Shown here: positions 26,993 through 49,591 of the stretch, in pieces
How positions within the stretch are numbered: the stretch's first letter is position 1
Layout of the letters: every line of letters begins with the position of its first letter
The notes under the pieces: generated by a model
The model's input: the letters and a program-made list of their open reading frames with translations, nothing else
Told to the model about the DNA's origin: nothing
Databases searched by the model: none
Translations under genes and position numbers: made by a program
Assembly (NCBI GenBank): GCA_017499595.2
Contig: CM039009.1
Span: 1,984,001 to 2,048,000, forward strand
Direction: 5' to 3'
DNA: 64,000 nucleotides
From: Psilocybe cubensis
Lineage: Eukaryota

Positions 26993-28660
26993 TCACAGCA
27001 TCGCGAGCCCTCTCTCCAAGTCGTCCTCGGCTGTAGTGAGCCATGCATATTCCCAATCGCCTACAATCATTTCTCCTAACTTTTCCAGCTTTTCAAGTCC
27101 AACCTCCTCTCCTTTTTGAACTTCCAAGAACTCCGGGGCATTAAATTCGTACAATAGGCCATGCGTCCTTGATGCTGAGTGTACAAAATTAGCAAACGGC
27201 CTCCGTATGGCGTCGTAGATATTCGTCAGCCTAGACAATGGCACCTGGGTTTGAACAGCTTTAGATATGAGGTGTGCAAGAATGTAAGAATCCTAGGTGA
27301 AATCAGCATAAGTTCGAAATTCGGATCTTAGCGTAATTTACTTCAATAGCTTGACCGGCACCATTCCCCTGATGAGGTGTCATTGCATGAGCCTAATAGT
27401 TGCGAAAGCCTAGTTAAAGTTTAATTGGACTGCATGGAGGCGGAGCACATACGGCATCACCGAGGAGAAGCACATTACCATATGTGTATGATCGTAGTGG
27501 CTGGATGGCATGGATAGCCCATCTCGATGGCTTAGACATGTGCTAGACAAGGGGAGGTCATGGAAAAAATAAATATCCTCAAAAATCGCAAACTAACCTT
27601 CACTAGGCAACGTACTTCCTCTTCCCAGCTGTCAAAAAATGGAACCACCTCCTCATTTTTTGCATCCTGAAACGACGGTCCATCATATTGAGTGCCTTCT
27701 TTCTCCATATCGCATACATACGCAGCGATATTGATGACACTGCCCTGGAGTATAGGATACGCCACAATATGCTGAAGAGTATCCAGGAGACAAAATTTTG
27801 GTTAGAATTGCATTCGCTTACCTGGTTTTTTCCACAGTACTGCCTTGACGGTGTTAATGTTTGTGCAGGAAGACGAGTCGCTACTTACGATCGTTGGGAT
27901 GTTTAGTGCGCGATGTTCGGGTAATTCAGCAGCAATCAGGTGGCTAGGGATCATCGATCGATACGCAAAGCTTCCGCTCCACACAGGGTCAGAGGTGGTT
28001 TGAGAGAAAGGCTCATTTTCCCTGACGAACTGCTTCCGCACCACGGATTTGAGTCCGTCAGCACCTACGAGGAGGTCGCAGTAGGCGGTCGTTCCATCTT
28101 CAAACGATAACTGGATTTCATTTGAAAGAACACTATAGCATCGAAGCCGCTTGGATAGATTGCACTGAATAGAAGGCGATAAGTTTTTTAACAGTACCTC
28201 CTGGACGACCGCACGATGGAATGACAGCGCGGCTCCTGCAAAAACAAGGTCTCGAATAGGTGTCCCATTGGGTTGGTCAGCTTTCCGGAAGTGAAACCCT
28301 AATCCTGTAATTGAGAGTTACTAGTAAGCTAGTAACATTTTTAATGAGAAAATGAACACCGACGTGGAGTTCCATCTGGAATGTGCTGGCCAGGAGACAG
28401 TTGACCTGCAAGCACGGAATCTACACCAAGTTTCTCTAAAATCTTCCAGGCGCGTGGCCAGAACGTTATTCCTGCACCAATTTGCGTCAATTCAGGTGCT
28501 GATTCATATATGTTGACTTGGATATGATCCTGGAGATTGAGTCGACTCAGAGCTACGGCCAAGGTCAGACCGCCAATTCCTCCACCTCTGTCTCCAATGT
28601 AAGCACATATTTCGACAAAATTCAAGGACTCGCCTACATAATTCCAATGCGCAATGGCAT
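26993..28660 (-). CDS. FAD-dependent monooxygenase (salicylate hydroxylase-like); multi-exon
   Basis: MPLRIGII|GGGIGGLTLA Rossmann motif; YESAPELTQIGAGI; DLLVGADGLKS; LLGDA|AHAMTPHQGNGAGQAIE|D. Confidence 0.92.
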
Positions 28661-29139
28661 CTTGAAGCTGTCAGAGTTTACAGATAAGAGGTTATCTATC
28701 CACACCCTCATGGATACTCCGCGCTGTAGTTCGAAAATGGCATCCTTTTCCTGACTGTGTGAACCCAGGGTAGGTGGTGAGAAACAGACCTTAACAATCT
28801 AAATTTTATCAAGGCCTAGCTCCAAGCTCAGTTGAGCCAAATAATGTAGGTCTGCCAGAGGTTGCGCCGAACATTGAAAATGAAATAGGCTTTGTAGGTT
28901 TGTAGCTTTGTACGGGGTCCCGGCTGGGTTTCTTGCTGTAGATCAGTTAATTCGAGCTCCGATTTAACTTCCCGTGACGGCGTGACCTGCGGTTTTTTTC
29001 CCGCTTTCTCCCGACTCCTTGAATGCGTTTCACTTTATCAACCAAACCAACTTTGTCAATATCATACTATTTACTTTCAAGATCCACTCCAATTTCAGAT
29101 ACTTTGAATCATCGTTGCTTCACAGTTGAAAGCTTGTGT

Positions 29140-29166
29140 CACTGCGGGGATTGGCATATATAGTCG
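29140..29166 (+). repeat. Left terminal inverted repeat (CACTG...)
   Basis: Reverse complement of 45016-45042 with 2 mismatches. Confidence 0.93.
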
Positions 29167-29599
29167 ATAATAAAATCGTCTCTTATATTGCGACTAAATT
29201 TTAAATATAATTGTTGTTCTGGATTAGATCAGAAATAGGAAAGATTTTTCAAAGATATTTTGCTGTTTATGTCACCCCGTCAAACCTCGACTACCTATTC
29301 AACAGTAGGCATAGTTTACATCTCGGACGGATTTTGAAATTCTGCCATGGCTTAATTCAGACATATCAGATTAGCACGTTTCCATATCTTATTTATTTTC
29401 TGCACCTGGCATAACCGCGAGGGATATCGAATATGACATAATCTCTCTGACTGTGGTTCTATTTGACCCATGTATTGTACAAACACTGTGACACCATCGT
29501 GAAAGTAAACTAAGCAGTGAAAACGGATTGTGTGATGAATGAAATTTGGGAAGGACACTCTACTCCAGCGGATCGCGCCTCCAAGGTAGCTCGTACGTA

Positions 29600-30347
29600 T
29601 CTGAAATATACATGGTAGGTAAACTTGTATCTGTGCACAATTTAAAAGTAAATAACTTACATAGAAATGGCCTTTTGGGTAAATAACCGGCCAACAGGAC
29701 GTGAAAGGATGCGAGTTCGACGTCCCAGAGAGAATATTATGAGCTCTCCGTGCCAGGGCGCATGAGGACAAATCTCATGTAAATTGAGATTTTGAGGAAG
29801 GGTGCTGTCATAGTAACCCATTATAAGGAAACGATGACGATCGACCGTGACAATGGTGGATGCCGTGGGGATGCAATTAGGATTTACAAGCACTCCGGCT
29901 ATGTCAATCTGAGGAGTTTCGGTGAAACTGCCAGAGTCCGTGGCTGCGAGTCGACATTGGAGCAGCATTGGATTTGCCGTTGTTAAAGAATAAAGCAGCC
30001 CTTTCCTGTACTTCTGTTGCAGGATCGTACTTTAGTTCTAGGTCTTCACTGGCTATAAAGTGGAAAACATACCTTGTCTCGTAATCTTTGGCTCCTGATT
30101 ACATGCACAACTCGTTCTGTGCTATGAGTTGGTAACTCGACAATCTCGGTCTCGTGGCGCGTAAGCTAGATAGAACTTGTGGTCAGAATTCTTGTAGTAA
30201 TCAAAGCATAACATGATGCTCACCATATTGATTTTGGGGATGCTGATGAGTAGGGGTGACTGAGGAACTTGGCTTTCAAGTTCGCGCAACTTTAAGTACC
30301 TCATCATCCTACTGCGCCATTTCAAAGTTGGATTCGAATGTGTCCAT
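29600..30347 (-). CDS. Small hypothetical passenger gene; exon structure and ends uncertain
   Basis: Exon-like segments ...VVHVIRSQRLRDK|GTATGT and ...RSCNRSTGKGLLYS...FLIMGYYDSTLPQNLNLHEICPHAPWHGELIIFSLG (ORF 29657-29968). Confidence 0.45.
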
Positions 30348-30749
30348 CGAGCTTCTTCTGGTCAGCCTAAACAGGGGATTATCTTTGAAAAGTATCGATA
30401 TCGACTTTTGAAATATATTCTACTGTTCAGCTCCTTACCTCTGATGCTTCCTTGACGAATAATCTTTGAAAAATAGCCGGCTGTTTTGGCCGGCTAGAAA
30501 TGTGGCAAATATTTCAAAAATAGCTGTCGCACAAAGAGCCAAGTGATCTTGGCACCAGATCAGACGATGTGAGTTCCGTTTTTTGTACATGATGCAGGCC
30601 GTACTCTGTAGGAATGCTTTGAAAGAATAATTTTTGACCAAATTTGAGGCTCGGGATTCTATCTTTATAATGATCGACGCCAAAGACAAGTGTTGAGTGT
30701 AGGCCCCATCCTCTAGTCGTCACTTTTACTCAACTTTCTCAAGCCAGAA

Positions 30750-32587
30750 ATGACGCCTTCCCGGATATTTTACGGGAATTCCCACGTACATCGACAGGCA
30801 ATTATCACTCTGCATGGCAAAGAAGCTGCTCACACTCTGAAGCTCTCGCACAGTGGTCGATTTCTTGCAGTCGGTAACGATGAGGGCCTCCTTGAAGTAT
30901 GTGAAAGGTCATTAATTTATTCTAGGTGTTTAGTGTGCTTAATAACTCCTAGATTTACATGCTCCATGACTCAGTTTGGAGAAGATTCGGCATTTACGAA
31001 AGCGGTACATCTATTCGCGCCCTTGCATGGCACCCATCGGAGGACTTGACTATTTTTTGTGGATCTGCCAATGGGTCTTTACATAGGATCACTATGCAAT
31101 TGGATGGGGTTAGTTTTACTTCTTTGTGTGCACTTTTCGCCTCACTGACTCTAATGCACCCCTTTCAGAGCTATGTTACATCTAGCGCTATTATACCAGG
31201 CTATATACACTCGCTGCAGCTGAGTCCAGACGGATCAAGGCTTGCAATTGGTCATGGGCGATCTGTTTCCATCGTAAAAGACCCGTTCATGGGTGAGTCA
31301 TTACAAGCACATCTCATTACTGATGTCATGGTCTGATGGGCGTAATAGAGCCAAATGAGCTGGGGGAAATGGCTAGACTGAACGTGTCATTGTCTCCCAA
31401 CGTTCAGAGTCTTTCCGAATATAAATTCTCACGCGGAATATTTTTTGCCTCAAGCCGGATAGTAATCATCCCTTTCCTTGGTACAGGAGGAATAACGTGT
31501 GTCATACTTCTTCATCTATCATTTCTGGACAACGCTAATTCGTCAATTATAGAGCATACAGCCTTAATGACTATTCCAGCAAGTGGTCCATTCAACTACG
31601 AGATAACACCTTGTAAGTGATATTGCAATTCCTTTGTAACTTGTTTGTTATAACAACTATGGTCTACAGTCTGGGCTCCGCTGCAATCTCACCGTCCGGA
31701 GAACGAGTTGCCGTTATGAACATGTGTGACGGTATAGACTTCTATTCAACCACCCATCGACGTCTTTTGTCGACTACGCGCTATGTCTTATCTAGCCGAA
31801 CTCCCCCAAGAAATCTGATAGTCGATATCATCTTTGTTGACGAAGATACTGTTGCCGTTGGCCATTCTGATGGCTATGTTGCTTTTGCGACATTTGGCGT
31901 TAGCGAGATATGCGGGACCTTTGCGCTCGATGACAACAATTACCGAGGTATGTCAAAGAGTTTTCAAAGAGAGCATTACATTCTGATTATGTTACCCAGC
32001 TCCAGTACAAGCCATAACATTTGGTCTTGTCAATCACCAGCCTCACATCTTCGCCGTTATACCCGCATTTAGTCCATGGATGCGCACACACGGTGCCATT
32101 GCCAATACTATCCACGTTGGACTCATACAAAACAACGACGAATCCGGTATTGGAGAAATTGATAGCACATTGGTATGCATAATCAGTTTGTTCTAATGTT
32201 CAATTAATTTTAACCACGGTGATACAGGATGATCAATACCCTTCAACTAGGACACGTCCGCTCACTATGTATAGTGCTAATACTTTCCACTTCACCACTA
32301 TGCAAGTAGCAATGTTGTTGCTTGTTACAATTTCTTCAACATTGTATGGGAAATATTTGCTCAGCACGGAGTCCCACTTGCCTCCGCCACATCTACAGGT
32401 CGCCGCAGTGACTGAACATCCCACCAATTCCGCATCAGAAACTTCGGTGAATCCATCTTCCCAGCCCCTTTTCTTGGAGGGATCACCAACCTCTCCTGCG
32501 CATCCCTTCTATGCATTCACATTAACCGGGATGGTCACTGGGTCTGCTTCAATTGCATTACCTACTGTAGGGAGTAATAGCGCGTGA
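30750..32587 (+). CDS. WD40-like beta-propeller protein with a C-terminal transmembrane segment (passenger gene); multi-exon
   Basis: Repeated blades LKLSHSGRFLAVGNDEGLLE, IRALAWHP...FCGSANGSL, IHSLQLSPDGSRLAIGHG, AAISPSGERVAV and IIFVDEDTVAVGHSDGYV; late hydrophobic stretch VAMLLLVTISSTLYG. Confidence 0.8.
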
Positions 32588-32738
32588 TGGTATTTCTCCA
32601 TACATAGATTACTCATTGACTTGTACATAATAAACATCCGAGTCCATATGCAATGCGTTAAATTGTTTTTTTTTCTCTATGGGAATATATTTGGTTATAA
32701 GTAATTGTCGCAGGAAGGCAGCTTTAACACGTTTTCCT

Positions 32739-34620
32739 ATGGCAACATTTCCTGAAATCATCGAGGAATTTTTATCTCGAGTCTTGCTACTCCCTCTTGA
32801 TGCTAGCAGGGAGGAAGTCAATATTGCACTCGCCAACTGCCTTCATTATGAGCAGCAAATTCGTCGTTGGTTTGCTCAGCACAGGAATCACCCCATTCTT
32901 ACCGAAGATCCCTATCTGGGCTTGATTAATATATTCCAGGTTCCCGACGCAGTTTTACGTTCCCGCCCTCGCTCAGACACAGAGAATATGCACATTTTGA
33001 CTTTTCCAGACAATAGCTACGAAGAATTTCCAGGATCCCATCTCCTACCTCTTCAGTCTGGACTTGTCAGGCCCCGGGGTAACCGTGCCATTGTTCCTAG
33101 TATTGAGGCCTTTCTGAACAATTTTCATATCTTCTCTCATGGCGCTCTGTCAAGGCTCCCAAGCTGGGAAAATATTGTTGTTGCTGGAGGATCTGTGTTG
33201 GGTTGTCTATCACCTCCTGTTAATGCGTCTAGCTCAAACATGGAGCTCAACGACTTGTACCAGTCGCCTGCATACTGGGACTCCGATATTGACTTATTCA
33301 TTTTTGGACTGTCTCACCAAGAGGTCAACTACGCTTTACCATCCTCCGGCGTACACTTACTGACATCTCATTATCTCGTAGGCCCTTCAGAAGATGGAGA
33401 ATATATACAATTCAATTCAAGAAACAATCCCTTTTCATACAATTTGCGTGCGCAGGGCAAATACCATTACAATCTATAGTGCGACAACTACTAATTTTTC
33501 CGATGTGTTTTTAAAGATGCTCACCATATTTTTCTTAGCAACATGGCCTGTAAGGCCAATCCAAATTATAATGCGACTGTATATGTCACCGTCTGAGATT
33601 CTTGCTGGGTTTGACATCGACTGCTCATGTTGCTTGTTTGATGGTACGAATTTCTTGACACAAATTGGTACATTTATTTTATTAACTGTGCTATTAGGTC
33701 AAAGTGTCTACGTAAATCCTCGGGCGCTTGCGGCGTTGATCTGTCAGTCAAACTTGATAGATATATCACGAAGATCACCTTCCTATGAAGTTCGCTTTGT
33801 GAAGTATTCTGAACGGGGATTTGAGGTCCACTATCCCGAATTAAATCGTCATAATATTGCTTACCAGAAAGTACGTCCAAATCTTTTTGTCTAACTGGAT
33901 ACATAATGACATCTATACAAAGCTTTATGACATCGACTTACAGGAGTATCCACAAGGCCTTTCATTTCTGATTGTCGGCGAGATGGAGCACAAGCGTCCC
34001 CACTACTACAATAATCTTTCTCAGTGGAAGGGTCGAGTTCCAAAGGCAAGACGTCTGTATGCACCTGAGAACATCGGGACTGCAAATTTGAAGGAGCTTA
34101 TATTCTCCAATAATTATGAGTATATTCGCATTCCCCATCGCCCAGGAGTAAATTCTAGAATAATTGAAAAATGGGTAAAGAGATTTGTGAGTTCCATCCA
34201 CATTTTTTCACCCAAATCTCATTGACTTTGTTAGGACGAGAGGGCAAATTCAAAGTATAACTTGGTAAACCTCAACCGAAACTTGCACAGGCATGCCGCT
34301 TTCGCTGGTACAATGGCAGAGTGTCTAGAAAATTTCTGCATGGTAAGTATTTCTTTATTCTCTCGTCATGGGGTCTAATGCCATACTGCGCTAGAATTGT
34401 CCTTCTCCTCAGAGCGCTGAAGAAGAAGCTTTAGTGACGGCTGAACCAATGTATATTCGGGGACCAGCCAGGTGAGTGCTACAACTCCGGTATAATTGCT
34501 CAACATGTGTCCTAACCTTTGAGCGTCAGATTCATTGAGTCGGACCCGGGCCGTCAGATGATTGGAAGTTTCAATCCAATCACCATTGATAATTGGACAG
34601 AAGGGGCCTATAGGAGTTAG
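32739..34620 (+). CDS. Nucleotidyltransferase-fold protein (Pol-beta superfamily-like), stand-alone form (passenger gene); multi-exon
   Basis: NIVVAGGSVLGCL...DSDIDLFIFG (hG[GS]...DxD); IQIIMRLY...SEILAGFDIDC; RRSPSYEVRFVKYSERGF; ends DPGRQMIGSFNPITIDNWTEGAYRS* with TAG at 34618-34620. Confidence 0.75.
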
Positions 34621-35640
34621 ATATGACGCCTTCAATCATGTAGATGATAACATTATGGTTAAAATCTCAGTGGGAAGTTGGGAATTGAATTAGCATTTGA
34701 TCATAAGGAGAATATTGCAGCACGTTGGCTCACCTATCTTATCAGTCATTGCAATTAGAGCCGGACTCGGACCGTACATTAGCACATGCTCTAGGATACA
34801 TATTCACATTGTACTCTTAAGACCGGCCATGGATTTGAACCAGGTTTAAGAAGCTTTACAAGCCTATCTCAGACCTGCTTGGTACTCTTGGGTAGATACA
34901 ATTGTATGAGAATGGCTAAGGATATCCCGGGCATGAATAAGCGTCAACTCGGGCATTAAATCCTCGTGTGCATATTGGTCCATAGGTGAGAAGCTGGGAT
35001 GACGGTAATACAATGCGTGTGGTCCTGATTTGCATTGCTGCGGCCCTTCTGTCTGCGCTCAAAGTCCAAAAAATCAAAACGCGCATGAACTGCATAGATA
35101 ATAAGCCCTAAAAGGTCTTGCTTCGGCTGTTTAGAAGCCTAATGACTGTTCTGGGCCTGAACACGCACACAAACCCTTGTGGGAAAACTTACATGACCGT
35201 GGTACTTTGTTAGTTCAGATGAACACGGTTTGTGGTGACAATGATGCACCACTGCGACACTAGATAGGGCTCTAGTGAAAGATTTAAGGAAAGTAAAATT
35301 TGTGAATACTTTCTATGTTTAACAGAGGCATTGATATTTTGAAAACCGTGATGTGTACTTGGTGGAGTGCAGTACTAGTGGGCGGAAAATATAGGGCACA
35401 TTAATTCTACATATCCCATAAGTTATCTGAACGTGGTAATTATAATGTGTTGCTTGACTCGTCAAAACCTCATGTTATATCTCCATCTTGGGCCATGACT
35501 TTGAGAAATAGGAAAACATGAGGCAGAGTTGGAAGAACGCTGATTATATTCTACAAAGTAAGCAAAGCATCCCAAAGACATAAAAGGCGTCCATTTTCCA
35601 GCCTAATACTCCTCAGCTCCTCTTCCCAACTCAAAGAGCG

Positions 35641-37523
35641 ATGTCATTCAGAAGCTTCTACTCCACCAGTCGCAGTCACCCAATGTCTGCAACTGCAAGC
35701 TACAAAGGTGCGTAGTTCTGTGTAAAGCACATTGGAATCAAATAACTGACCTTATGTTAAAGGATTTTCTGACAGCAGTCCACCAACGTCGCTCTCTGCC
35801 TCTGTTACTGCATCTGTTTGTAGTAGCGAGAGTTTCCAAACGGCCCAGCAGAGCGCATTCTCTCCTCAGTTTGCCGAGTCTTTCATTCGCGGTTTTGATT
35901 TGAATCGCACTGACACGGGGAGCGAATCATCCTTTGGAACTCACACTGGTTCCCTGGAGAATTTTTCTCCTGTTTCTGCTCCACACAACAACGACGTAAA
36001 AGGTTCTATGATGGTCGTAAGCCAAACTGTCTTATGCACAAAATTTGTTAAGTTTTTCTAACAACCTTCGTTAGGCTTGTGATGAAACGTCTGACAACAG
36101 TCCCCAAGATGAAGAGGTAAGTCTGTTACTTGTTGACACTATACATACTCTGATTAGCAAACAAAATTTGGTTGTATTCTTAGATGCATGATGAACTCAG
36201 TTCTGACTCTGCAGAGGAGACGGAAGATGAAGACTATATTGCCTCGGATGACGAGGCTCAAATGGTAAGTGAATGGTTGAAATTTTTTTGTCATATTAAT
36301 GTTTTTATTGTAGATTGTAACGGACTCGACCAATGTTCGACTCACACGTTTAGAAGCTAACATCACTGCCGTCTTAGCAGCAATCCAGTCACTCACAGCA
36401 GCAGCAGCAGCGTCGGCTCAGGGGCCTACTACTACCCCAACCTCTCGTCTTGGAGTTATCTCAACTCGACCACTTGGTCCAAATAGGCGCCCAGCAGACC
36501 GAACTGCTCTCATGGTGAGAAGTATTTTATTATAATATCCGGAATACTCGGTCTCACTGTTCTGTCTATAGCGCCAAGTCAGAGCAGAGCTCAGCCGACT
36601 GCTCGGTGATGATTTTCTGAGCTTCGAGAATGTCTTGACTCGTGACGAGCTCGATGTTTTTGGATCTATCTGGAAGTCTTCTACAGCTGAGCCACGTCCA
36701 TCTTGCTGTGACGTCGACAATTTTAAGGTCGACCTCATTGGTTCTCCCCGAAGTGATTGGAACCAATCAGCTTCACGAGTTTTTGCCAAGCACTTTGTTA
36801 CCACGTCGGCGTATAGTCACAGCTATTTCCCTCTGGTCCAGAATTATTTTTACCAGAGGATGAAGTCTCTTCAGGCAGCTTTTCGGAGGAAGAATGCGGA
36901 CGATGCTGCTCGACAGGCCGAAACCACTGCTAAGCGCCGCTGGCAAAGAAAACAAAATGTATGTATTAAATTTAATGTATGTTCCATTATTACATTTACT
37001 TATTCAATGTTTTAGCTCTTCCACAAGCGTCTTGGGATTGCCCAGGAGCACCCCCTCCTACAAGAGCATGTACCCATTCTACAACGTCTTGGTATTGCAG
37101 GGATGAGCTCAGACGAGAGCGATTTTGAGGATGGCCCGGCAAGCACTGCCACAGGGGGTGCTCCAAGATACAAAGTGCATCCCCCTGCCTGGCGTGCCTC
37201 TGCCCTCTCCTACTGGCTGCAGACAATTGATTCGCTCCAGGTTCTTTTTAGGAGATCCAATGGTAAGCATCGCGGCTCATTTCCTCGCCTCCGCGTTGCA
37301 TCTGGAGAAGACAGCGACAGCAAGGGCTTTGTCACTGACTTACCCATCACGGCATACAACCCAAACTGGCTTGCCGCTAGGCCATTTTATATGTTTGATG
37401 TTCGCCCGACCGATGAGAACTACAACTTCAATCACGACAACCGACTCTTTGCGTGAGTCAAACATATTTCTTCATTATACTGTGGCACTAACTACATTTT
37501 TCAATAGATATTTCCAAGTCTAA
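35641..37523 (+). CDS. Hypothetical multi-exon protein (transposon accessory ORF)
   Basis: ATG at 35641 and a series of GT-AG introns. Conserved-looking C-terminal block WNQSASRVFAKHF...KRRWQRKQN|LFHKR...LGIAGMSSDESD...PAWRAS...LPITAYNPNWL. Confidence 0.65.
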
Positions 37524-38528
37524 TGTTGTAGCCACCATCCTCAAATTAATCAGGGCTTGTCCTCCCTACCGTGTTAGCACAGGTTCCGAAAGAGGGTAGG
37601 AGTGCCCCGACATTCTTGATACGAAATCTTTTTTTTGTATGTTCCCTGCCATTCAAAATGGTCCGAAAGAGGGAAAAAGTTTTGATAATGTACATATACT
37701 TGACAACAATGATTCTACAATTCTATATCTTTGATTTCAATACTTCTTGAATTGAATTTTGGCACAATAATAAGTGTTGGAAGTCCCAAAACATACCACT
37801 TAGACAATTGGACACCAATCACATATGCTGATCACAATATATGTTGACACCTCAAAATAGTTAATCTGCCACCAACGTATGAGGGGATCAAAACACGCAG
37901 GCGTATTGTTTCTGCGCCACCACTAGCATAGGAAGCCTCTTCAGCGGCAACGGTAATGCACATGCGCACTCAACCATTTTTTGTTGATTCATGCGTCTGT
38001 CAGTCACATGATTCAAGAATGGCACAAGTGGTCTAGACTCTAGGTTGGTCTAGAACGCATTACCTAAGAGTAACACGTACGCACGGGCCATAGTTGACCG
38101 CATTAACATTATAGTCCAGGTAGAGTGTAACAGAGAGGGTTAGAAGTGCATTAAGCCACAAGCCAGGTTACCAGACATTGACAAAGTAATAAGTAGCAAA
38201 GAGAGTCAGCAGTTGTAGCAATTTTGAAGCAGTAGAATACAAAGGTGTAACCATATTGCCAACATGTCACCCAATCGGCCAATGTTCAGTGCTTCTATGC
38301 GTTGGAAAACAGCACTGTAGGTCATGAGATGTAACTTATCAAGTGGTTTTACTCAAATACTTCCACCGAATTCTTATAAATCATATCTGACAATGCGGGC
38401 CATATCACCGAGCTAACTCGTTACTCTTCTGAATCTTGGCATCCGAAGCAAAGATATCAATTGTCGCATTGCGATACAGTTATTAGCAACACATTTTTTT
38501 GCCTCTCTGTACCTTGGTTCACCTAGAC

Positions 38529-40555
38529 ATGCAATCCGTAATCCAGGACCTTGATCCAAACAGTGACTCCAGCCCGCCGCTCAACACTCAAAGGCTTCCC
38601 AACTATGATAAGCCACCATTCGTTCAGATTGAACATTTTCCGGACATTGATGTACGTATACCATATTCATCAACACAAATATGCTATCTCACTCTTGATC
38701 ATAGCTTCTTACTCACGATTTTGGGGAGCTAAACATGACAAGGTCGGTTGTTATCGATTAAAATATGATCTTTTATTCACTATAAGTATGCGCATACAAG
38801 GCCCCCCTATAACTCTCATGAGCAGAGGGAGTTCTCTGTCTCTGCAGCGCACAGTCGCTACCACTCTGAATCCAATATACCAGAGCGTCAACGCAGTCCG
38901 GACCGTGAAGGAATCCAGGTGTCTTCCCATGTTATTGCGCAACGGTCACAACAGGATTGGACTGAAGAAATTACGCGTGAGCTCAGACGCATCTCAGGCT
39001 CTAGTGGACATTCAGGGCAGCGCACCGGTCACAATCACTCTGGATCTGTTGCTAATCCAGTTGAACGGCGGGAAAGTGGTCCCCAGGAGCCTTTCAATCG
39101 TGGCCGCCGCGAAATGTCACTCCCCTTCACGCCAGCGCCATATCGAGCCGGCATTGAGGAGAAGAAATCTGAAGTTCGACGGGTGATTGCTTACTACTTT
39201 CACTCGTCTGCCGTTTCCCCCCAGAACGTTCATCAAGTAGTCAGTGTTATAACTGGCAGTACAGACGACTATGGAGCGTTGCTCTCCCAGCTCAATATCC
39301 TTGGTCCACCTACCAGGTATGAAGACATTGGCGAGGTCTATAACCGTCTACATTACATTGTATTTGGAGAAGAGAGAAACACGAATCCTCCGTAAGTTTT
39401 CTCATTTCATGTATATCAAAAAAATCAATTGATCATGTAAATCTATTGTATAGAAACTCTCTTTCGTACACCCCTGTCAGTGCTCACAACACCAGTCGTA
39501 GATTTATTATCGACAATGACCCGGGATCTATTTCTGCACCGAATACCCCGAGAGCACAACAGCGCAGTCCTACATCAGTTAGAGAACCTGCTGCGCTTGC
39601 TGCCCCAATTGCCGTGTATCCACTAAATCCGCCTACTTCTCGATCAACTCCTAGTCCTCCCATCCAGTCACGGATCGATGTTGGAGTGGGAAGTTTGCCT
39701 GCACGTCCTGTGTCTCAGAATATCAGAGAATCTTCAGCCACTTCAGGATTGCGTACCGCGCCAATTCTTTCCCCCACTTCACAAAATCAACAGTCTACAC
39801 CTCCCCATTCTTCGTTGGACCGGATGCTTTCCCACGCATCTAACTTGCCGCTCCCGCCTGTTTCTCCGGCGTCTGTACCCTTGGCAGCATCATCCTTTTC
39901 TGAGGGAACACCACGCCAGTCTGTTGCCCGTCATGCCACTCCACAGAGTCAAGTCAGTCCTCCACATTCTTTGGCACCCAATTCAAGTGCTTCCTTATCA
40001 TCTGCTACTACCTCACTCTCAACTGCAACATCCACTAATAATACTTCGGCATATTTTACCGCGCTATCTGCCAAGGTGTTTCACACAGAGATGGAAGGTA
40101 TAGACGGCCCAATCGATTTTACCTATACCATATCATGCTCGACAGGGCCTCTTGATAATCCACCCGTAGCAGCATTAGAAGAACCGCCTCAATCTGGCGA
40201 CCTTCTCTTCAATCAGTTCCCACATGCCGCACAGTCACTCAGGCAAGCACAAGTGTGGATGTACGTCGACGGTGTTTCTCCTAATGAGCAAGGAGTTTGG
40301 GTAAACATTTCATCTAACTACGGATCATTTGCGGGACAACCAATCCCACACCCTAGGGTCCCGAGTCGTTGCCTAAGTGTCTATCCTGGGAAGGAGGGAC
40401 GACCACGTTGGATAAAGGAGGAGACATGGAGTTCTAATCAGAAGAAATATTTGGCAGAAGCGGATAAGAAGAAACGATTAGATATAGGCCGTGCATCGCT
40501 GACTCCTGCGCCTTCTGCATCTCCATCTAGTGTTGCCAGAAGATCAAGTGACTGA
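38529..40555 (+). CDS. Hypothetical Ser/Pro-rich protein with a small globular C-terminal domain (transposon accessory ORF)
   Basis: Spliced ORFs 38499, 38919 and 39446-40555; C-terminal GDLLF...QVWMY...WV...HPRVPSRCL...PRWIKEETW. Confidence 0.6.
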
Positions 40556-40682
40556 CTAATACACAGATTACTCCAAACTCGTAGTAGCGGGAACAATAGC
40601 AGTAGGAACATGCTTGATACATTACTTTTGTACTGTCGCTTCAATGTCACTTCTTTTATTTCATACTCCTTTTCCTCTCACC

Positions 40683-43600
40683 ATGATAAGGCGTGGACGT
40701 GGCGGCCGGTCACGGCCTGTAATAGTAAACTGCAGATGCAAATCGCACTGCACAACGTTCAATGCCGCTACTGGACTCTATGAGGGAGATGGTATACTTC
40801 AGACACGTCCTACACGCGACAATCACATGAAAGACGATAGACTCCTGATAGCACTTTCTAATCACGCACCACAGCCAGTACATGTTCCTGACGGCAGCAC
40901 AGATGGCTCACCGTTTCAAGAGGTCTTTGATGAAATAGATATCATAATGTCCCAGTCACTGTCTGATGCTCTGCGCCCGTTTGACTTTGTAAACAAACCA
41001 GAAGACAATGGCCAATTTGTTTGGCCCAATGACGACGAAATTCTACTTCCAAATCATGGGCTATACTCGTTGAAAAACAGCCTTGTCAACAGAACATACT
41101 TACTTGCTGCGCATCGTCTTCGAGAAATCTACAACTGGGCAACAAATCCATTCATCCAGCACTCTGATGACATTACACCTTTATTGGATTGTATTATGGA
41201 GAAAATGGGAGAACTTGTACGGATGAAAGAAGTTCAGTGGTCTCAGCAGCGAGGAAATAGCCGCGTAGATGGTCCATACGTCAATACAGGTATGAAATCC
41301 CTTGTTCAAAAAGAATTATATTGTGCTGATTATAATACTGGCTTATATCGCAGATATATATTTCACACCTCTGCCTTCATTGAATCCGAGACAGAGGGTT
41401 GCTGTCTATATTTCCCTCGTCATGGAAAATATGTTTTTTGTACCGCGGCGAGCATTACGAACTTTATTGGCAGGCGCTCGATCTCTATTACGCTCTAACA
41501 ATGCATCCGAGACTGTTGTGGAAGAGATACCGGCGGATCCGCAGTCAGGAGCACATAGAGCACGCTTGAACCCTGAAACACGCCAATTTGTTGTTTGCCC
41601 AACCTGCCACAAACTATACCCATTCAAACCCGGTGATAGTCCTCTCAACGACAGTAATCCATTCATTTCAATTTGTATGCAGCGCCGCACCCCCGAGTCC
41701 AATGAGTGTAACACGCCTCTTTGGAAAGAAAAAACTACAAGCCGTGGGACCTCGTACCTAGTCCCAATTCGGAAGTACGTCCACCAGGATTTGAAGCATT
41801 GGGTCGGACGTCTACTCTCTAGAAAGGGGATGGAAGAACTTATTGACAAACAGAATGTGGATCTCAGCAGCACCTCCCCCACCTCACCCGTTAATGACAT
41901 TTGGTCAGCAAGTATTGTTAAAAATCTAGAAGATGGTTCTGGAAACAAGTTCATTCCCGGTAATAATGGCGAGGGGAGGCTATTATTTAGCCTATCGGTC
42001 GATAGCTTCAACCCATTCCACAATAAAACCGCCAAACAAAGTATATCATCGACTGGTATTTGGATGGTTTTACTCAACCTCCCGGCACATCTTCGATATC
42101 TCCACGAAAACATGTATGTTGCAGGTGTTATCCCCGGCCCAGATAAACCATCGAAGGAAGACATATATCCGTACGTTGAACTGGTTATGGAAGATCTTTT
42201 GGATTTTTGGTACCAGGGTGTTCGATTTTCGCGGACCGAGAGTAGCCTATTCAGCCGACTTTACAAAGCTATGCTCATTCCTCTGATTTGTGACATGCTG
42301 GCTGCACGCCAGATGGCTGGCCTGGGCGCTACAACATCTCATTATTTCTGCACCTTTTGCGAAATTGATCTTGACGATATAGACATTACAGATCGAGCAG
42401 AATGGCCGTCCAAGGATTTGCAACATATTCAGCATGTTGCTAACCTTTGGAAGAATGCGGCCAGTGAAAAGGAGCAGCAAACTATTTTCGAATCATATGG
42501 CATACGGTGGTCGCCTCTTCATACGCTTCCATATTGGGATGTTATCCGTTTTACTGTCATTGATCCTATGCACGCGCTTGACCTCAATTTATTCCAAAAT
42601 CATTGTCGCTCAGTCTTTCAAATTAACACAGGCGCTCAGGGTGGGGATGGTATTGGACCCTCACTTCCTCATGAGCGACATTTTACATCCAAAGATCACC
42701 TTCAGCATTTGCGACAGTGCCGGGAGCTCATCCGGTCTAACGACGATGACCTAATGACAAAGCTTCTTTTGCATCCGCGCCCTGTTCTGTATCAGATCTG
42801 CGTTGAAAATGACATCATTGGAGAAGGTCACCGGCGCATCATCGGGACAAAATGGATACTTGTTAATAACATATTGGCTTGGGTGAGTACTCATAACTAT
42901 TGTATTTTGGACAATGTGGATTCTCATTACGGTTATATTTTTATACAGAGGAACAGTCCAAATTATGTAGATGTCAGCACTTCCCCAGTTTCTCTGGATG
43001 ATGACCCATCCAACGATGAATTGGCTATATCACAAACTCCTATTCTTCCTTTGGATAGTGGCCTTGATCGTGCGCTTATCATTCGAATCTTACGACATCT
43101 CTTTGCTAGCGAAGATGTTGAGGCATCTCATTCTCGGGCATATGGCCAAGGGTCGGTTGCTGCATTTCTGTACATCTGTAATCTTGTGCACATATCCACC
43201 AGTGATGTCGATACAAGAAGGAAAACCGCAAAGCGGCGTTTATTTGACAAGATAATTGGAGAAGTAAGCATATATTTGATGCAGTTTCGTTTAACCTGTA
43301 AAATTAACACGCTCTTGCTATGCAGATAGAGCGAAATACGGGGGCGTCTCAAGAGCTGCAAATGTATATCCCCACTGTAGACGATTCTGCACGTCCTGTA
43401 CTCGGAATCGATGTCATGGAAGAAATTTGGTCTGAGATGACACGTACTCAACTTCCAACATGGATTACCCCCGCACCTCCCGACTGGGGTACATTCAGAC
43501 GGGGGAAACTTAGCGCTGACAACTGGCGAGTAATTTGCTCAATTCACTTGCCTATTACGCTTATTCGGCTCTGGGCAAATGGAACTGAGCGTAAACGGAG

Positions 43601-44735
43601 AATGCTTTCACATTTCATGGATCTCGTCTCTGCCGTTCGAATTGCAAATATGCGTGTTACATCTGAACTTCAAATCCAGGAATACAACCGTTATATGACT
43701 CGCTATGTGTCCAGGCTGAGGTCCCTTTATCCCGACCAAGCATTGAAACCAACACATCATGCCGCTCTTCATATAGGCGATATGTTGGGACTATTTGGTC
43801 CAAACCACTCTCATAGCGGCCCTCATTATGAGCGATATATTAATTTCTTCCATCGTGTAAATACCAATATGAAAGTTGGTACGTAGGGCCTCTACACATA
43901 TTCTACCATCAAAGCTGATCAACACTTTTCTAGGCGAATTAGAATCTACTCTACTTTACACATCTGCCCGGAGTGCAAACATTCGGGCTGCGCTTTCTGA
44001 CAATACTTCTCTGCGGAAATCAGTCATTGAACTTGTAAATGTCATGGACAATATCGACCAAGAGGACATTCGAGGATTTCGTTTGGCAACAATCCTTGAT
44101 CCTGACTCGCCAACATATACCCAGCGAAGCAAGTCTGATGTCGCTCCATTAGGGCAAGCGTATCATACTCAGCTCTGCGAACTTTTGGGTAGAGCTACTC
44201 ATACAATGCCAAGGGACGTAACATTTGTGAAAGAAATATCTCGCAAAGGAGTTTGCTACGGTGTTTCAGGAGCAACAACCTTCAAAAATAGTTCTATCAC
44301 ATTCCGATCTGACGATCCTCAGGACGCTGCTTCGTATGCCGGAATAACGACTCACATTTTTCACTATCGGTATCCCATATCCGAGAACCAATATGCCGAC
44401 GGCCACTTTCTCATTCTGCGAGAACTTGTTCCGATTGATACAACCATATTTGACCCTTACAAAAGCTTTACCTTTGGAGGATATCTTTGTAGGGAAACGG
44501 CGCAGACCCGAGTGATTAAACTCTCACAAGTTATATCACACTGTGCATTGACAAATCTTGTCACTGATCCCTTTAGAGGTTTATTTCACGTACTACCATT
44601 GGACAGGGTAAGCTGTTATTACCGCTTCACTGTTTGTCTCTACTGAGCGATGTTTCAAAGCTAATGCTGGAGTTTGATTCAATGGGTCTCAGCAGCCACG
44701 CGGAGGAAGCGAGTGATCAGGCCGCCGACCAATGA
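40683..44735 (+). CDS. CACTA/En-Spm Tnp2-family (Transposase_21-like) DDE transposase; ~6 exons
   Basis: CPTC; LLFSLSVDSFNPF; LLNLP..LRY..ENMYVAGVIPGP; LICDMLAARQMAG; FCTFC; IDPMH; KLSADNWR; KPTHHAALH...FGP...YERYI. Confidence 0.93.
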
Positions 44736-45015
44736 ATGTGCGCCGGTCACCCCGAACGACTTTTTCCGGAGTAGATTATTCATATTAATTATTATTTATG
44801 AGACGTACATGACATGTGGTCTGCGACCTGCCGGTGAAGAATGATGAAATATAATTGTTCTTTCGGCTTCGAATTCTTCTCAATTAATAAGCACAAAATA
44901 CTGTACAATCACAACAGCAGCATATTTTTCAAAGGGAAAGCTAGATATACGCATGTGATTAAATAACTAAATACTTTACATATGGAATCGGACATGAAAT
45001 CGACGAAGACGGGCC

Positions 45016-45042
45016 CGACTATATATGCCAAACCCCCCAGTG
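45016..45042 (-). repeat. Right terminal inverted repeat (...CAGTG)
   Basis: Complementary to 29140-29166; followed by TSD TGT. Confidence 0.93.
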
Positions 45043-45464
45043 TGTATAGCTTTCAATGTATTCCCAATCCCTTAAATTTTTGCAAATCAGATCCCCAGGC
45101 GACGATAGCACCAATGGTGTGTATGGAGGAAAGAACGTTGTATGACAATCCACTTATATGATGTGAATGCTACTAAGTCAAGGAATATTTAGTTGATATA
45201 CTCTCTTCCAATCATACTGTTAACAAAGGTTGTTTCGACATCAACAAGCAAGCTCAACCGAAGTTGCTCTTTATAGATAACTTCGCAGCTCACTGGTAAT
45301 TTTAGGAGTGCTGTGTCTTGTGGCTCCTTTCTGATAAGAGGTTCTAACCATGCGTTTTATTAACCGAGAAGCCTTGATTGTGGCCTTTGCTGACATAGAA
45401 GAAGAATGGGATTCAATATAATAATTGAACCTATCGTTTATTCCTTCCCTCCACAGAACCGAGA

Positions 45465-46538
45465 ATGCGTACCGTAATCCTTCTGGCTGCTCTGGGGCTC
45501 TCTGGAACTGTCTGTTCCTCTCCTCTCCGTGTTCGTGACATTCCTACCCCAGTTGATGGAGAAACGGCAAGACAATTCTTATCAGAGCGTAGGCTAATTT
45601 TTACCCTCCTAGTTTTAAGTTGCAACCTTATCAGGACCGCTACTTTTAGTCGTAGTTGCCGTCGACTCGAATGACCCACCGTATAGTCGCTCTCTATTCA
45701 AGACCTGGGATTTAAGTAATCTACTGGTCGCTCTTGTTTCAAGCGTTCGGCTCTAACTCACACACTGCAGTCTCTGGAAACTGTGATACACGAGAGAGTA
45801 AGCAAATCCTCTAACCTTCTTCTGTTATCCCTTTGCATTCTCAAATATATCCTTGTAGCGGTTCTCATTCGAGACGGCACTAACGTGGTCACCAACAAGG
45901 CGTGTGCCTCGGTATCTGGAAATTGGGTATCCCCATATGATGGTGTTCCAACGACGCTTGCCAGCGATCTCGATATTGTGAGAACTTTCATGGAAGATTG
46001 TCATTCTATAGCTTATGATCTACTTTTAGGACCACCTTGTCCCACTGAAAGAGGTATTTTCCCTTTATGTTAACATTTTCTAGAAGATACTCATTGAATT
46101 TACTATAAGGCATGGCTCTCAGGAGCCCGAGATTGGACTCCCGCTCAGCGTGAGGCCTTTGCGAATGATCTCGTCCGTCCTCAACTTGTTGCTATAACTG
46201 ATAAGTGAGTATCTCGACACAAGGTTTATTTAACGGTGTCTCACAAAACCCGCCTCTCCAGTTTGAATGATTCTAAAGGTGCGCCTAAGTGACAAGTTCG
46301 ACGAAGACCGTCAATCTCATTCAAGTGCGCCATCTTACTAGGTGATAGGGGTAAGTCGATTAAAAATAGATCGTTTTAAATCTGATCATGGTGCATAGAT
46401 GTCGCCCATTTTTTGCCTCCTCTTGCGAGTTATGTTTGCACATACGTTCGCGCATGGGTTACTGTCAAGCACTTTTATAACTTGACGATGGATACAGCTG
46501 AACAAGCTGCTTTGACGACACAGTTGGCTAATTGCTAA
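45465..46538 (+). CDS. Secreted DUF1524 / HNH-type nuclease-like protein, copy 2; multi-exon
   Basis: Signal peptide MRTVILLAALGL; CDTRE|TVLIRDG, WVSPYDG, DI|DHLVPLKE|AWLSGA, FANDLVRPQL, NDSKGDRD and CTYVRAWVTVK. Same intron positions as 16826-17894. Confidence 0.88.
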
Positions 46539-46934
46539 GCTGTGACGGGCAGTCAATATAATTGCGTCGAGTTTTCTATGCACCTTTTACGGTTAAGTGG
46601 AGTGATTCCTCGGTCGTCTCATTGTTCTTTTCCGAATTTTACCTGCAACTCATTCTGATTCCCGTGGTTTCTCGTTCTTAACGTCTGAGGGAAGTGAACC
46701 TTTTGTGCTGATTACCGTTATCTCAATCTGTCCTAATATGGGTGACATTGGGCGCCCCATTTTTCCCGGGCCTTTTGATATCATGAAAGAGATCCAAGTT
46801 GGCTTCGCTCATCATCGGTAGTTTATTCACTTGATCAAAATCCATCTAAGCGTGCGCCTTCCGGTGTATATAAAGAGAGTCCTGATTTTGCTGTCTTCTT
46901 AGCCGTCAGCTTACACCCATCATTCGCCAATACC

Positions 46935-47709
46935 ATGCAGGCTCCTACCTGCGAAAATATTTGCGTCAGGTCCCCCCTTGATGCTATGACTATTATCCAT
47001 GCTGCTCACCAAGGAATACTCCCATTGGTGCACCGCCGTCTCAACTCTGACGAACGGCGAGCCATACAGTCTGGCAATGTATATGTCTGGGAGCAGGGAG
47101 CACCTAACGCAGCTAAATCATCGGTAGGCATCCTTCGTAGAAGCCTCATGATTTAACACTGATCACTGCCTCCACAGCTGGGGGTTGAAAGATGGACAGA
47201 CTCAATATCATGGGGTCTAAGTAAGGCCAGGGATGTGAGTTATGCTTCGAAATTATTTATAAATAACATGATACACTTGCTTACAAGGTGTAATAGGATT
47301 TTGTTTTCTATAATGAAAAAGAACCCGCGCATCCCAGGTCTAATAATACTAGTACATGCTCGAGTAATTCAAGGTATGTCATTTATGCAGCTGTAAAACA
47401 AAACGATAGTAGAACAAAGTTGTAATCTCCGGCCCAAAATTTATTACAGGAAGCCACTGGTCAAGCAAACATACTCCGTATTCGTAAGGACACAAACTGG
47501 GAGGAAAAAATGGAATCTAAGTAAGCTAGCATAACCTTACTCACTGCGTCGAAAAAATAATTATTGCCATAATAGCTGCGTACTTCTCACAAGACTCGGT
47601 GGATCAACTAGGCAGGGTTGAAGACCACATGCAGCTTAAAGAGCTCAATATTCCGGACGGATTGTATGTATGTGCGCGTTCTGGTCAGAATAGGCTATCC
47701 AGGATGTAG
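46935..47709 (+). CDS. Gti1/Pac2 (WOPR-domain) family protein, compact form
   Basis: VRSPLDA...GILPLVHRRLNSDERRAIQSGNVYVWE, ERWTDSISWG, LVKQTYS and KWNL.AYF; TATATAAA at ~46867. Confidence 0.88.
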
Positions 47710-48406
47710 TGAACCGTACGGTGATCATTCTATATGGTACGCAATAGATTACGCAAGTTAAAGCAATGGTAGTTTCTGGATGCTTTGATGCGGATTTTTT
47801 TCGGTGGGGGGATAAATGTTTGCGGCGGACGTCACCTACTATTTAACATACAGTTGTGTCTATTGAACTTGGGGTTTTCTCAAGCTTTACTCCTGGACAA
47901 CTCTTGGAGGCCCAGTGAGTACTAGGAAAAGTTGATCACAGGTTGATCATAAGTTGTGCCATCCCTGAGTATACATCTGGTATACATCCGCTTGTGTGTT
48001 GCAGAAGAAGCTTGCTTGCTTGTTTAAAGCTTAAAGCTTAAAGCTTAAAGGACGACCGTTTCGTTGGACGTGAGTGTCTCGGACGCGGAGTGACGACTTT
48101 TGCCACAAAGTTGGGGCTTTTATGATTTATTTGCAGCTGTTTGGCAACAAACGGTGGTGGCCTTGTTGCCCGATTACACGTCAATGATTTCATTTTTTAG
48201 CCGAGGTGTTTGGTTGGCTTTAATGCTTCTCGCTCGCGTCCGTCCTGTCATCTGGCCGTGTGCTGCATGCAACACGTAGAACTCACGATTTTTGAGGTAT
48301 TCCGTTTCTCGCAATTAGTAGCGCCTGCTAACTCTTCAGAAGCCTATCACGCATCGGGACTATTCGTGTCGATTTCCGATCAGGGTGCATAAAGCAAGTA
48401 TTCCAA

Positions 48407-49591
48407 ATGGCCAATACAACTCAACCAAGACTTTATAGCCGGGTTCATCAAGGCGACCGAGTCAAGATCACTGCGGGCGAATATGTAGGCCTGGTGGGAT
48501 ATGTACGCGCGGAATCGGACAAAGAAATGTCAGTATACCTGGAATCCCAGGATGTTACTATCGACATCATACGGCATAACGTGAGGGCAAACTACCTTGT
48601 TGGTGATAAGGTTCGAGTCGCTCAAGGTGACAATATTGGAATGACGGGAGTGGTAGTGGAAGTCGAAGGACGGAGGGTGCACGTTGTAGACTTGGTGAAT
48701 GAATCTGAGGTGAGATTTCCTACTCACTACAAATAGCACATTCCAGCTCAATCTGCCAAGGTGTCTGTTAGATCTGAGTTGCTAGAATTTTTCGAAGAAG
48801 CTGCTCAAATTGCACTACGGCCTCTGAAACGTCACAAGGGAGACATAGGACCACGAGACCCCAACAATATTTACAACGGTAAAAGCGTTGCTGTCAGTGG
48901 TTTGCACTCCGAAAAGGGTTATCATGGTATCATCAAGCACACACACCCAGACGGCCATGCAGACGTAGAGTTAGAGGCGAAACAGCAGCGACTGCAACGT
49001 TTTCCTTTGCATGACCTCATTATTCTGTAAGTACACTCGTGTCTTTAGGCTGTATAAGATTCTGATTTTGTTTTCCTAAGCCCAGCCTCAGAGAACATGA
49101 ATAGTTCCGCAACACAGGACGTGGATGGTTCGCGAACACCTCCTGTGTTGTCACCAATGCGGGATCTATCACCTGCATGGAATCCTGCTTCTGCGACACC
49201 CGAGCCCACCGAACAGTCTTCAGAGGACCTCTCTTGTTTAAACGATGACCGGTTACATGGTGTCCGAATCATGCTGACGACTACCGACGCAGGGCCCTCC
49301 GCGCCAATAATGGAGTTCACCGGTATCAACGATAGAGTGGTTAGTGTCAAGATGCGTGGTCAGATTGTACAAAAGTGCCTTTCCCAGATTCTGCTAGTGC
49401 ATCCAACCAAAGCGGGGGATATAGTGACACCACGGCAAGGCCCATGGGTTGGACAAATCTTCAAAGTTCGAGAAATAATTGAAGATACTTGCAGCATTCA
49501 CAAAATACCCGCAAAGAAGTTGAACAAGAAAGAAAGCCACCCTACGATGCTCAGAATAGAGTTGCTATGCATGTATCTCCCATACCGTTGA
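48407..49591 (+). CDS. KOW-repeat protein resembling a partial Spt5; 3 exons
   Basis: GDRVKITAGEYVGLVGYV, GDKVRVAQGDNIGMTGVV, GKSVAVSG...KGYHGII, SPAWNP and GDIV...GPWVGQIF. No NGN domain visible. Confidence 0.7.

Follow-up and report, generated by a model that had tools for sequence, protein, structure and literature searches.

A CACTA-type transposon at the centre of an interrupted host palindrome in Psilocybe cubensis: a hint of symmetric target choice

Maize En/Spm is a member of the CACTA/En-Spm superfamily, in which targeting is poorly understood. For transposons with terminal inverted repeats (TIRs) in general, symmetric target motifs are the rule according to the available text of two reports (PMC2577343; PMC3276498), and the symmetry of the target is centred on the mid-point of the target site duplication (TSD), which a multimeric complex built around a two-fold axis would lead one to expect. 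In the same accounts the motifs of these cut-and-paste elements are short and degenerate, i.e. consensus sequences over many sites with most of the information in or next to the TSD, and in Drosophila families they extend at most 3 bp beyond it (PMC3276498). For CACTA elements, only AT-rich TSDs (WWW) are reported in the accessible part of a target study of 2,523 elements (PMC4938662), and no long symmetric target is described for CACTA/En-Spm elements in the available portions of the literature found, which fits the view of the initial annotation that palindromic targeting is not typical of CACTA transposons. The locus described here, located within a 64-kb stretch of genomic DNA (64,000 nucleotides, hereafter the window), differs from the TIR-transposon motifs in that it is one site with perfect 9-bp arms positioned 3–11 bp outside the TSD, whereas the TSD and its 2-bp neighbours are asymmetric.

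Element anatomy and coding content

The transposon covers 15,903 bp (29140..45042, plus strand) and was delimited on the basis of its TIRs, the TSD, a Transposase_21 ORF and the empty allele. The left TIR (27 nt, 29140..29166, plus strand) begins with CACTGCGGGG and the right TIR (27 nt, 45016..45042, minus strand) with CACTGGGGGG, the two matching at 25 of 27 positions. These CACTG-type termini, the 3-bp TSD (TGT on both sides), the clustered short subterminal repeats and a predicted tnp2-type transposase (Pfam Transposase_21) are all traits of the CACTA/En-Spm (CMC) superfamily, and the element is a true CACTA-type cut-and-paste transposon. CACTG termini, a 3-bp TSD, a tnp2-type transposase, subterminal short repeats, large size and recent polymorphic insertions link it to a superfamily that, as far as the available texts go, also includes pvCACTA1 of common bean (PMC4938662) and CNIRT6 of Cryptococcus, which has CACTG ends (10.1101/2025.05.19.654958).

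A run of plus-strand ORFs in the right part of the element (38542..44646) is the candidate transposase gene, and from their common strand and adjacency these ORFs probably represent one multi-exon gene. Within the run, a 677-aa ORF (41296..43329, plus strand) matched the Transposase_21 (tnp2) domain with an E-value of 1.6e-11 and 44.3 bits (cut-off 28.6). It had 154 relatives of 373–1067 aa, nearly all with PF02992 and the best with 65% identity, and the named ones belonged to Agaricales.

A second, TnpA-like DNA-binding accessory protein is a further trait of CACTA/En-Spm elements. A second run of plus-strand ORFs (151, 134, 281, 170 and 126 aa; 31617..34225) may supply its counterpart, as these ORFs probably belong as exons to a second gene of the element, whose product is a candidate accessory protein. 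No Pfam family was obtained for the four of five ORFs scanned (including 32183-32587 and 33845-34225), nor for the fifth at a looser listing, and the 281-aa ORF was nearest by atlas features to unnamed Basidiomycota clusters, which is a lead only.

Short repeats are clustered next to both ends, with five copies of the core TTTCAAAG/CTTTGAAA in the left subterminal region (29247..30624; copies at 29247, 30320, 30383, 30464 and 30617) and two copies of the TTTCAAAG core in the right (44653..44934; copies at 44653 and 44927), neither region being assigned a strand. Among 8-mers, the CTTTGAAA/TTTCAAAG word ranked first for enrichment in the element ends, with seven copies in 2 x 1.7 kb vs. two in the other 60.6 kb.

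The family is represented in the window by this element alone, the TIR core with up to three mismatches being found only at its two ends, and the other CACTG-like matches (7 vs. 4.3 expected) were at chance level. Metagenome scans returned no matches with the 27-nt TIR pattern and 108 pattern matches, none of them confirmed, with the transposase ORF; a scan of viral contigs with a 21-nt TIR pattern likewise gave no match. Elsewhere in the window, a recognisable TIR pair was not found for a Plavaka-type element at ca. 3.4–8 kb, and no further TIR elements were seen at 45–64 kb.

Target palindrome and the empty allele

At the left junction, the host word TTGAAAGCT (29126..29134) is followed by TG and TGT (29135..29139, the TSD copy being 29137-29139) and then by CACTGCGGGG, with which the element starts at 29140. 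At the right junction, the element end ...CCCCCCAGTG at 45042 is followed by TGT (45043-45045) and AT (together 45043..45047) and then by AGCTTTCAA (45048..45056); none of these flanking features has a strand. The arms TTGAAAGCT and AGCTTTCAA are exact 9-bp reverse complements, each 5 bp off an element end, and the 5 bp in between (TGTGT vs. ATACA) form none of five possible pairs. The rebuilt target is thus a 25-bp interrupted palindrome with 9-bp arms, a 7-bp spacer and its dyad at 29138, the exact middle base of the TGT duplication, from which the inner edges of the arms are offset by 4. Inside the arms, TG-TGT-AT has none of three symmetric pairs, and symmetry starts 3 bp outside the TSD. 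The junctions on both sides thereby agree with the initial annotation on the inverted words and their distance from the element, on the centring of the palindrome on the TSD and on the non-pairing 5 bp.

The empty allele was found in three (X10, X6 and X11) of the four public sequencing runs examined, supported by one contig each in X10 and X6, and by 19 raw reads in X11. Its joint leads from 29134 to 45041 with no extra letters, and the 15,906 bases skipped equal the element (15,903) plus one 3-bp TGT copy. Both arm words are retained 7 bp apart and there is no footprint. It follows that the arms belong to the host DNA and are not outer ends of the element, and that the symmetry is a property of the target. 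The expectation of the initial annotation that the empty allele contains the palindrome was consequently confirmed in all three runs, and the opposite case that it had named, arms travelling with the element, did not occur.

The chance that the 9-bp words are the true termini of a longer element is practically nil. The arms and TIRs were indeed found as one inverted repeat, which the words extend to 41 nt at 83% complementarity (9 arm pairs plus 25/27 TIR pairs). However, no direct repeat flanks the words, CACTG ends together with a 3-bp TSD are as expected in this superfamily, and the retention of the words in the empty allele refutes this reading.

Some plant transposon excisions leave short inverted duplications, and the palindrome could by analogy have been left by a previous transposon at a recurrent excision hot spot, as a hairpin-derived inverted duplication. 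In scars of this kind the inverted copies adjoin each other at the break, whereas the arms are here parted by a 7-bp non-symmetric spacer, on which account an excision scar was rejected as exceedingly improbable; the empty sequence is, moreover, the same in X10, X6 and X11, as expected of an ancestral allele.

The element is polymorphic among strains. In X1, the element contig had a depth of 135.8 vs. 44.5–47.1 for the flanks, which corresponds to ca. three near-identical copies; in X10 the element was absent, and in X11 its depth was about half that of the flanks, the 19 empty-site reads occurring in the same run. By this polymorphism and copy number the element looks young and recently active. 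A 51-nt flank in X6 probably belongs to a diverged copy of the element.

Chance, promoter setting and DNA structure at the site

Centres of perfect palindromes (arms of at least 9 bp, inner edge within 20 bp) occupied 3 of 63,880 window positions, which gives a chance rate of ca. 5e-5 for one insertion against the positions of the 64-kb window as background. After removal of the element, 4 of 47,974 positions qualified as such a centre, one of them being the insertion site. The arm word was present only at its two arm sites in the 64-kb window. Its count was in itself unremarkable, as at least two matches were obtained in 15 of 100 shuffles, and the rarity therefore concerns the placement of the word and not its number.

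We tentatively favour the reading that the own machinery of the element read the symmetric site and that the centring is no accident. A two-fold symmetric transposition complex would dock on the two-fold symmetric host site, with both arms read by a DNA-binding function of the element, either the transposase or the accessory protein. The arm-reading protein may be the one that would normally bind the TTTCAAAG subterminal repeats. With two subunits bound, the two active sites would be held across the dyad at a spacing of 3 bp, and the 3-bp staggered cut would be made exactly on the dyad of the pre-existing 25-bp palindrome. The exact geometry, the low chance rate and the target-borne symmetry speak for this course of events. 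The symmetric targeting proposed in the initial annotation is thus supported in part: the palindrome pre-exists in the empty allele, and for targeting there are one insertion, the rate of ca. 5e-5 and arms that weakly resemble the repeat. A single insertion hints at symmetric target choice and cannot prove it.

The arms weakly resemble the subterminal repeat (p ca. 0.02–0.04, as estimated from sequence comparison). With up to two mismatches allowed, the arm word had 22 matches in 2 x 1.5 kb of element ends, when permuted words had a mean of 10.2 (n = 300) and reached at least 22 in 6 of 300 cases. In a matrix built from the seven repeat copies, the scores of the right and left arms fell in the top 0.06% and 0.3% of background positions, respectively, and each arm carries a near-copy of the repeat, CTTTCAA, oriented away from the dyad. 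The likeness covers 7 of 9–10 positions, amounts to ca. 0.03 after counting the ca. 58 nearby positions tried, and was looked for post hoc, after the data had been seen. By eye, the arms showed no likeness to the TIR itself.

If 18 bp were strictly required, the ca. 45-Mb genome would offer hardly any further target; the element is nevertheless present in several copies, and any preference must therefore be loose. Against targeting, a loose preference rarely yields perfect arms, and the inner positions TG-TGT-AT, where the Drosophila motifs lie according to the available text of PMC3276498, are wholly asymmetric. A narrower version of the favoured reading, which we hold to be unlikely, is that the family is semi-site-specific, and that the TTTCAAAG-binding protein also binds inverted repeat-like half-sites ca. 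16 bp apart (centre to centre), thereby steering the cut to the dyad. This would make the element a eukaryotic cut-and-paste transposon homing to dyad-symmetric promoter sites, with a target footprint far wider than any motif described for TIR elements. Sequence logos are blind to a symmetry preference as such, since each site may differ in sequence, and per-site symmetry scores are the right test.

It is quite possible that the site was taken for ordinary reasons, such as open promoter DNA and a tolerated TGT, and that the palindrome was centred by accident. The case is single, without replication, and was picked from a very large scan, where events at 5e-5 will occur; palindromes of similar strength, in the whole window only three base-centred and seven between-base, are present there without a transposon. 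An accident has, on the other hand, to account for a centring exact to the base, for the rate of ca. 5e-5 per insertion and for arms that are like the element's own repeat at p ca. 0.02–0.04. Published CACTA target data, in the accessible part of PMC4938662, are without such a motif, and the asymmetric inner 7 bp are where known motifs hold information in the available text of PMC3276498, both in favour of coincidence.

The genes on the two sides are transcribed away from the site. On the left, a salicylate-hydroxylase-like FAD monooxygenase gene (26993..28743, minus strand) has its putative ATG at 28743, and on the right, ORFs with a signal-peptide-like N-terminus (45465..46073, plus strand; ATG 45465), for which no family was found, form the neighbouring gene. 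As the flanking genes are transcribed apart, the intergenic region between them is divergent, and the site lies mid-way in its ca. 815 bp, at ca. 396 bp from the putative left ATG and ca. 419 bp from the putative right ATG.

A perfect palindrome with an interruption is a typical form of the site of a dimeric factor, and this setting would suit the site of such a host transcription factor in a bidirectional promoter; the complex would then be led to the dyad by the factor itself or by DNA that is bound, bent or free of nucleosomes. Such tethering by the host is, however, improbable: no factor or known motif was matched to the palindrome, and the window has neither a further occurrence of the half-site word nor a second near-copy of the 9-N-9 site, the best match to which has four mismatches.

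The target could also have been chosen by structure: with help from negative supercoiling between the divergent promoters, the site would extrude a 9-bp stem with a 7-nt loop, as a hairpin or cruciform, and the transposase would attack the tip of the loop. The predicted DNA hairpin has a free energy of -6.7 kcal/mol (shuffles: mean -0.57, sd 0.87, best of 500 -4.7), equally stable 25-mers were only 84 of 63,833 in the window, and the cut falls mid-loop. Arms of 9 bp with a 7-nt spacer are nevertheless short for cruciform extrusion in cellular double-stranded DNA, CACTA transposases are not known to use such targets, and we regard this route as highly improbable. Hairpin tips strongly stimulate transposition by the RAG1/2 transposase in the available text of PMC1618415, and insertion at the tip of a stem-loop matches the position found here if the site extrudes. 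The RAG finding differs in that it was shown in vitro, while the stem here is short and its extrusion only hypothetical.

Significance and comparison with other palindromic targets

If the favoured reading of the site by the element's own machinery is true, a CACTA transposon reads a 25-bp symmetric site, perhaps via its own end-binding protein, which would be a testable mechanism of target choice and could suggest a way to programmable insertion that exists in nature. If the centring is coincidence, the locus is still a clean case of a young, polymorphic, autonomous agaric CACTA element with filled and empty alleles documented.

Among bacterial insertion sequences, those targeting REP palindromes are reportedly inserted within short host palindromes (PMC1525189), as here; they are said to differ in having a repeated target family, whereas the palindrome here is single-copy in the window. 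The hot-spot consensus of another bacterial insertion sequence, IS30, is 24 bp long. IS30 is unlike the present element in its copy-out-paste-in transposition, 2-bp stagger and a transposase unrelated to those of CACTA elements. It is like it in combining a DDE transposase and a short stagger with long, nearly palindromic hot spots, which in E. coli, according to the available text of PMC9333248, are not inverted repeats of the element. The inverted repeats of IS30 itself serve as targets too, and the choice of target is in this way tied to the binding of the ends (PMC9333248, same text).

Insertion site and empty allele

The 15,903 bp CACTA element at 29140-45042 is preceded by the arm TTGAAAGCT (29126-29134), TG, and one copy of the TGT target-site duplication (TSD), starts with CACTGCGGGG from 29140, and ends with CCCCCCAGTG at 45042, after which follow the second TGT, AT, and the arm AGCTTTCAA at 45048-45056, as read from the sequence. 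Arms and element ends were reported by the repeat finder as a single 41 nt inverted repeat with 83% complementarity, consisting of 9 arm pairs and 25/27 terminal inverted repeat (TIR) pairs, with 0/5 positions paired in between. The 9-N7-9 palindrome is centred exactly on 29138, the central base of the duplicated TGT. The initial annotation, which had described flanking arms, an unpaired 5 bp between arm and element, and a palindromic target centred on the TSD, was reproduced on each of these points.

For the region 25000-31000, 12 public sequencing runs were listed, 10 with part and eight with half or more of its words, and four of the 12 were compared with 27100-47099 at 85% likeness. An empty-allele joint from 29134 to 45041, which skips 15,906 bases (15,903 + 3) with five letters compatible with both sides and none in between, was carried by one contig in run X10 (depth 85.2), one contig in run X6 (depth 13.1), and 19 raw reads in run X11 (7 + 12, with 12 start places); among the four runs compared, it was not found in X1. 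In the empty allele, the left arm is followed by TGTGT, AT and the right arm, which matches the earlier reconstruction from the occupied site exactly. Unchanged arms in X10 and X6 rest on alignment flush to the joint, one difference per flank being counted in each run, at an unlisted position. As the empty allele keeps both arms, these are host DNA, and their interpretation as outer element termini is refuted. No excision footprint was found at the joint in the empty alleles of X10, X6 and X11, and this identical form is present across three runs; both fit an ancestral empty allele with a recent insertion. That the palindrome itself is an excision scar is highly improbable, the non-symmetric 7 bp spacer being a poor fit. 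The insertion of this autonomous-looking CACTA element is real and recent, and its 3 bp stagger falls on the symmetry centre of a palindrome that the host already possessed.

The element and its surroundings

A Transposase_21 (tnp2) ORF of 677 aa was identified at 41296-43329 (Pfam E-value 1.6e-11, 44.3 bits, with the cut-off at 28.6), with 154 relatives at E ≤0.001 from 8,000 candidates scored, the best at 65% identity and the named ones from Agaricales genera. In X1, contigs ended at the element termini, and the depth of the element contig was 135.8, compared with 44.5-47.1 in the contigs of the flanks, which corresponds to about three near-identical copies. X10 was without a close element copy, holding short pieces with many differences only, and X6 had fragments ca. 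13% diverged, spanning the right 5 kb. Coverage in X11 was ca. 16 reads in the element against ca. 35 in the flanks, and this half coverage together with the empty-site reads places the element on one of two haplotypes.

At 34076, 34084, 39014 and 43577, the window sequence is matched neither by the element contig of X1 nor by any X11 read, and 14/16 X11 reads carry a CAGCAG insertion after 36395; these differences are small copy or strain variation of a very young element. Additionally, 22 X11 reads break at 33164 and run leftwards into unrelated sequence (the listed 30 letters start with CACTG), which may point to rearrangement or nesting of a copy in the X11 strain. A 107 bp piece inside the element (37855-37961) matches contigs in all three contig runs, the element-free X10 included, with 14 differences, and could have been captured from the host or belong to a conserved gene. 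An ORF in the left part of the element, at 30953-31336 (+), weakly resembles WD40 repeats (E 5.7e-5, short of the Pfam threshold) and may represent part of a gene taken up by the element.

The insertion site is unique host DNA and not another repeat. The left neighbour is a salicylate-hydroxylase-like FAD monooxygenase on the minus strand with a putative ATG at 28743, exons of which matched PDB 6bz5 (28341-28670, E 2.2e-8; 27802-28317, E 7.3e-10), and to the right, an ORF on the plus strand begins at 45465 with what resembles a signal peptide, no family being found for it. Since these divergent genes are ca. 396 bp and ca. 419 bp from the site, it lies in the middle of a ca. 815 bp divergent intergenic region. 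That a dimeric host factor on a promoter element accounts for the insertion at the dyad is a live reading of low probability.

Downstream of the right flank are a Gti1/Pac2-family ORF (46779-47156, +, E 1.9e-11) and an ORF with Spt5-type KOW motifs (48332-48736, +, E 1.7e-9), and the 135 bp piece 46959-47093 was found again elsewhere in all contig runs. A Plavaka transposase ORF of 651 aa at 5777-7732 (+; Plavaka E 6e-64, DUF6830 E 3.8e-45), around which no TIR pair was recognisable, indicates a second, different CACTA-related element. Like the relatives of the tnp2 transposase, this ORF suggests that the DNA is from a basidiomycete of agaric type. The region 56100-63800 comprises about four tandem units of ca. 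2.0 kb (spacings 1975-2011 bp, 63-80% identity), each with a long minus-strand ORF of 264-351 aa that has no Pfam family, and a 93 bp unit at 1311-1496, within ORF 1128-1922, is tandemly duplicated at 96% identity.

Symmetry of the target and the subterminal repeats

The 9 nt arm word is not rare by itself (two matches in the window against 0.86 expected, with at least two in 15/100 shuffles); the rarity is in its placement. Centres of perfect palindromes, with arms of at least 9 bp and the inner edge at most 20 bp away, occupied 3/63,880 window positions, and 4/47,974 when the element was deleted by script, the present site among the four; palindromes of such strength in the window were base-centred in three cases and between-base in seven. 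As single-stranded DNA, the 25-mer site is predicted to fold into a 9 bp stem with a 7 nt loop at -6.7 kcal/mol (500 shuffles: mean -0.57, sd 0.87, best -4.7 kcal/mol), and 84/63,833 window 25-mers are equally stable. Attack on a hairpin tip, for which RAG offers a comparison (PMC1618415), is another live reading of low probability.

In an unbiased k-mer comparison of the terminal 1.7 kb of both element ends with the other 60.6 kb, the most enriched k-mer was CTTTGAAA/TTTCAAAG (7 vs 2 occurrences, ca. 50-fold), which is a subterminal repeat as expected for a CACTA element, the consensus of the seven copies being near TTTTTCAAAGAT. En/Spm has TnpA and its 12 bp motifs. Both arms, read outward from the dyad, are AGCTTTCAA, CTTTCAA included. 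With at most two mismatches, the arm word had 22 matches in 2 x 1.5 kb of element ends, when 300 permuted words had a mean of 10.2 and 6/300 reached 22. When background positions were ranked with a matrix made of the seven repeats, the right arm and its context fell within the highest 0.06% and the left arm within the highest 0.3%, or about 0.03 after allowing for ca. 58 nearby positions and strands. The test was chosen post hoc, with the data already seen, and the apparent resemblance is a lead, short of proof.

A two-fold symmetric transposition complex would dock on the two-fold symmetric site, with the transposase or a TnpA-like protein binding the subterminal repeats as candidate readers of the arms. 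Recognition of the arms by a DNA-binding function of the element itself is tentatively judged the most likely reading, and palindrome targeting is plausible from this one insertion. Coincidence is nearly as likely: the case is single, perfect arms seldom result from a loose preference, and a strict 18 bp requirement would leave no further targets, yet the element has several copies.

Comparison with known target motifs

Palindromic target motifs with staggered cuts are recognised by TIR transposons, as established for the P element (PMC2577343) and for 22 Drosophila families, in which they reach up to 3 bp past the TSD (PMC3276498). Compared with these, the TSD and its 2 bp neighbours are here non-symmetric, the perfectly symmetric positions are found 3-11 bp beyond the TSD, and one site is at hand instead of a consensus. 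Among CACTA elements, AT-rich WWW duplications are described for 2,523 complete pvCACTA1 elements (PMC4938662) and a euchromatin preference is noted (PMC6379663), and the accessible description of CNIRT6, a basidiomycete CACTA element with CACTG ends, is without a target motif (10.1101/2025.05.19.654958). Searches of open-access text brought up no long symmetric CACTA target. The nearest working analogue of the present palindrome-centred insertion is IS30, whose targets are hot spots of almost palindromic sequence as well as places beside its own inverted repeats (PMC9333248). If true, the targeting would be a variation on the already known symmetric target choice of TIR transposons.
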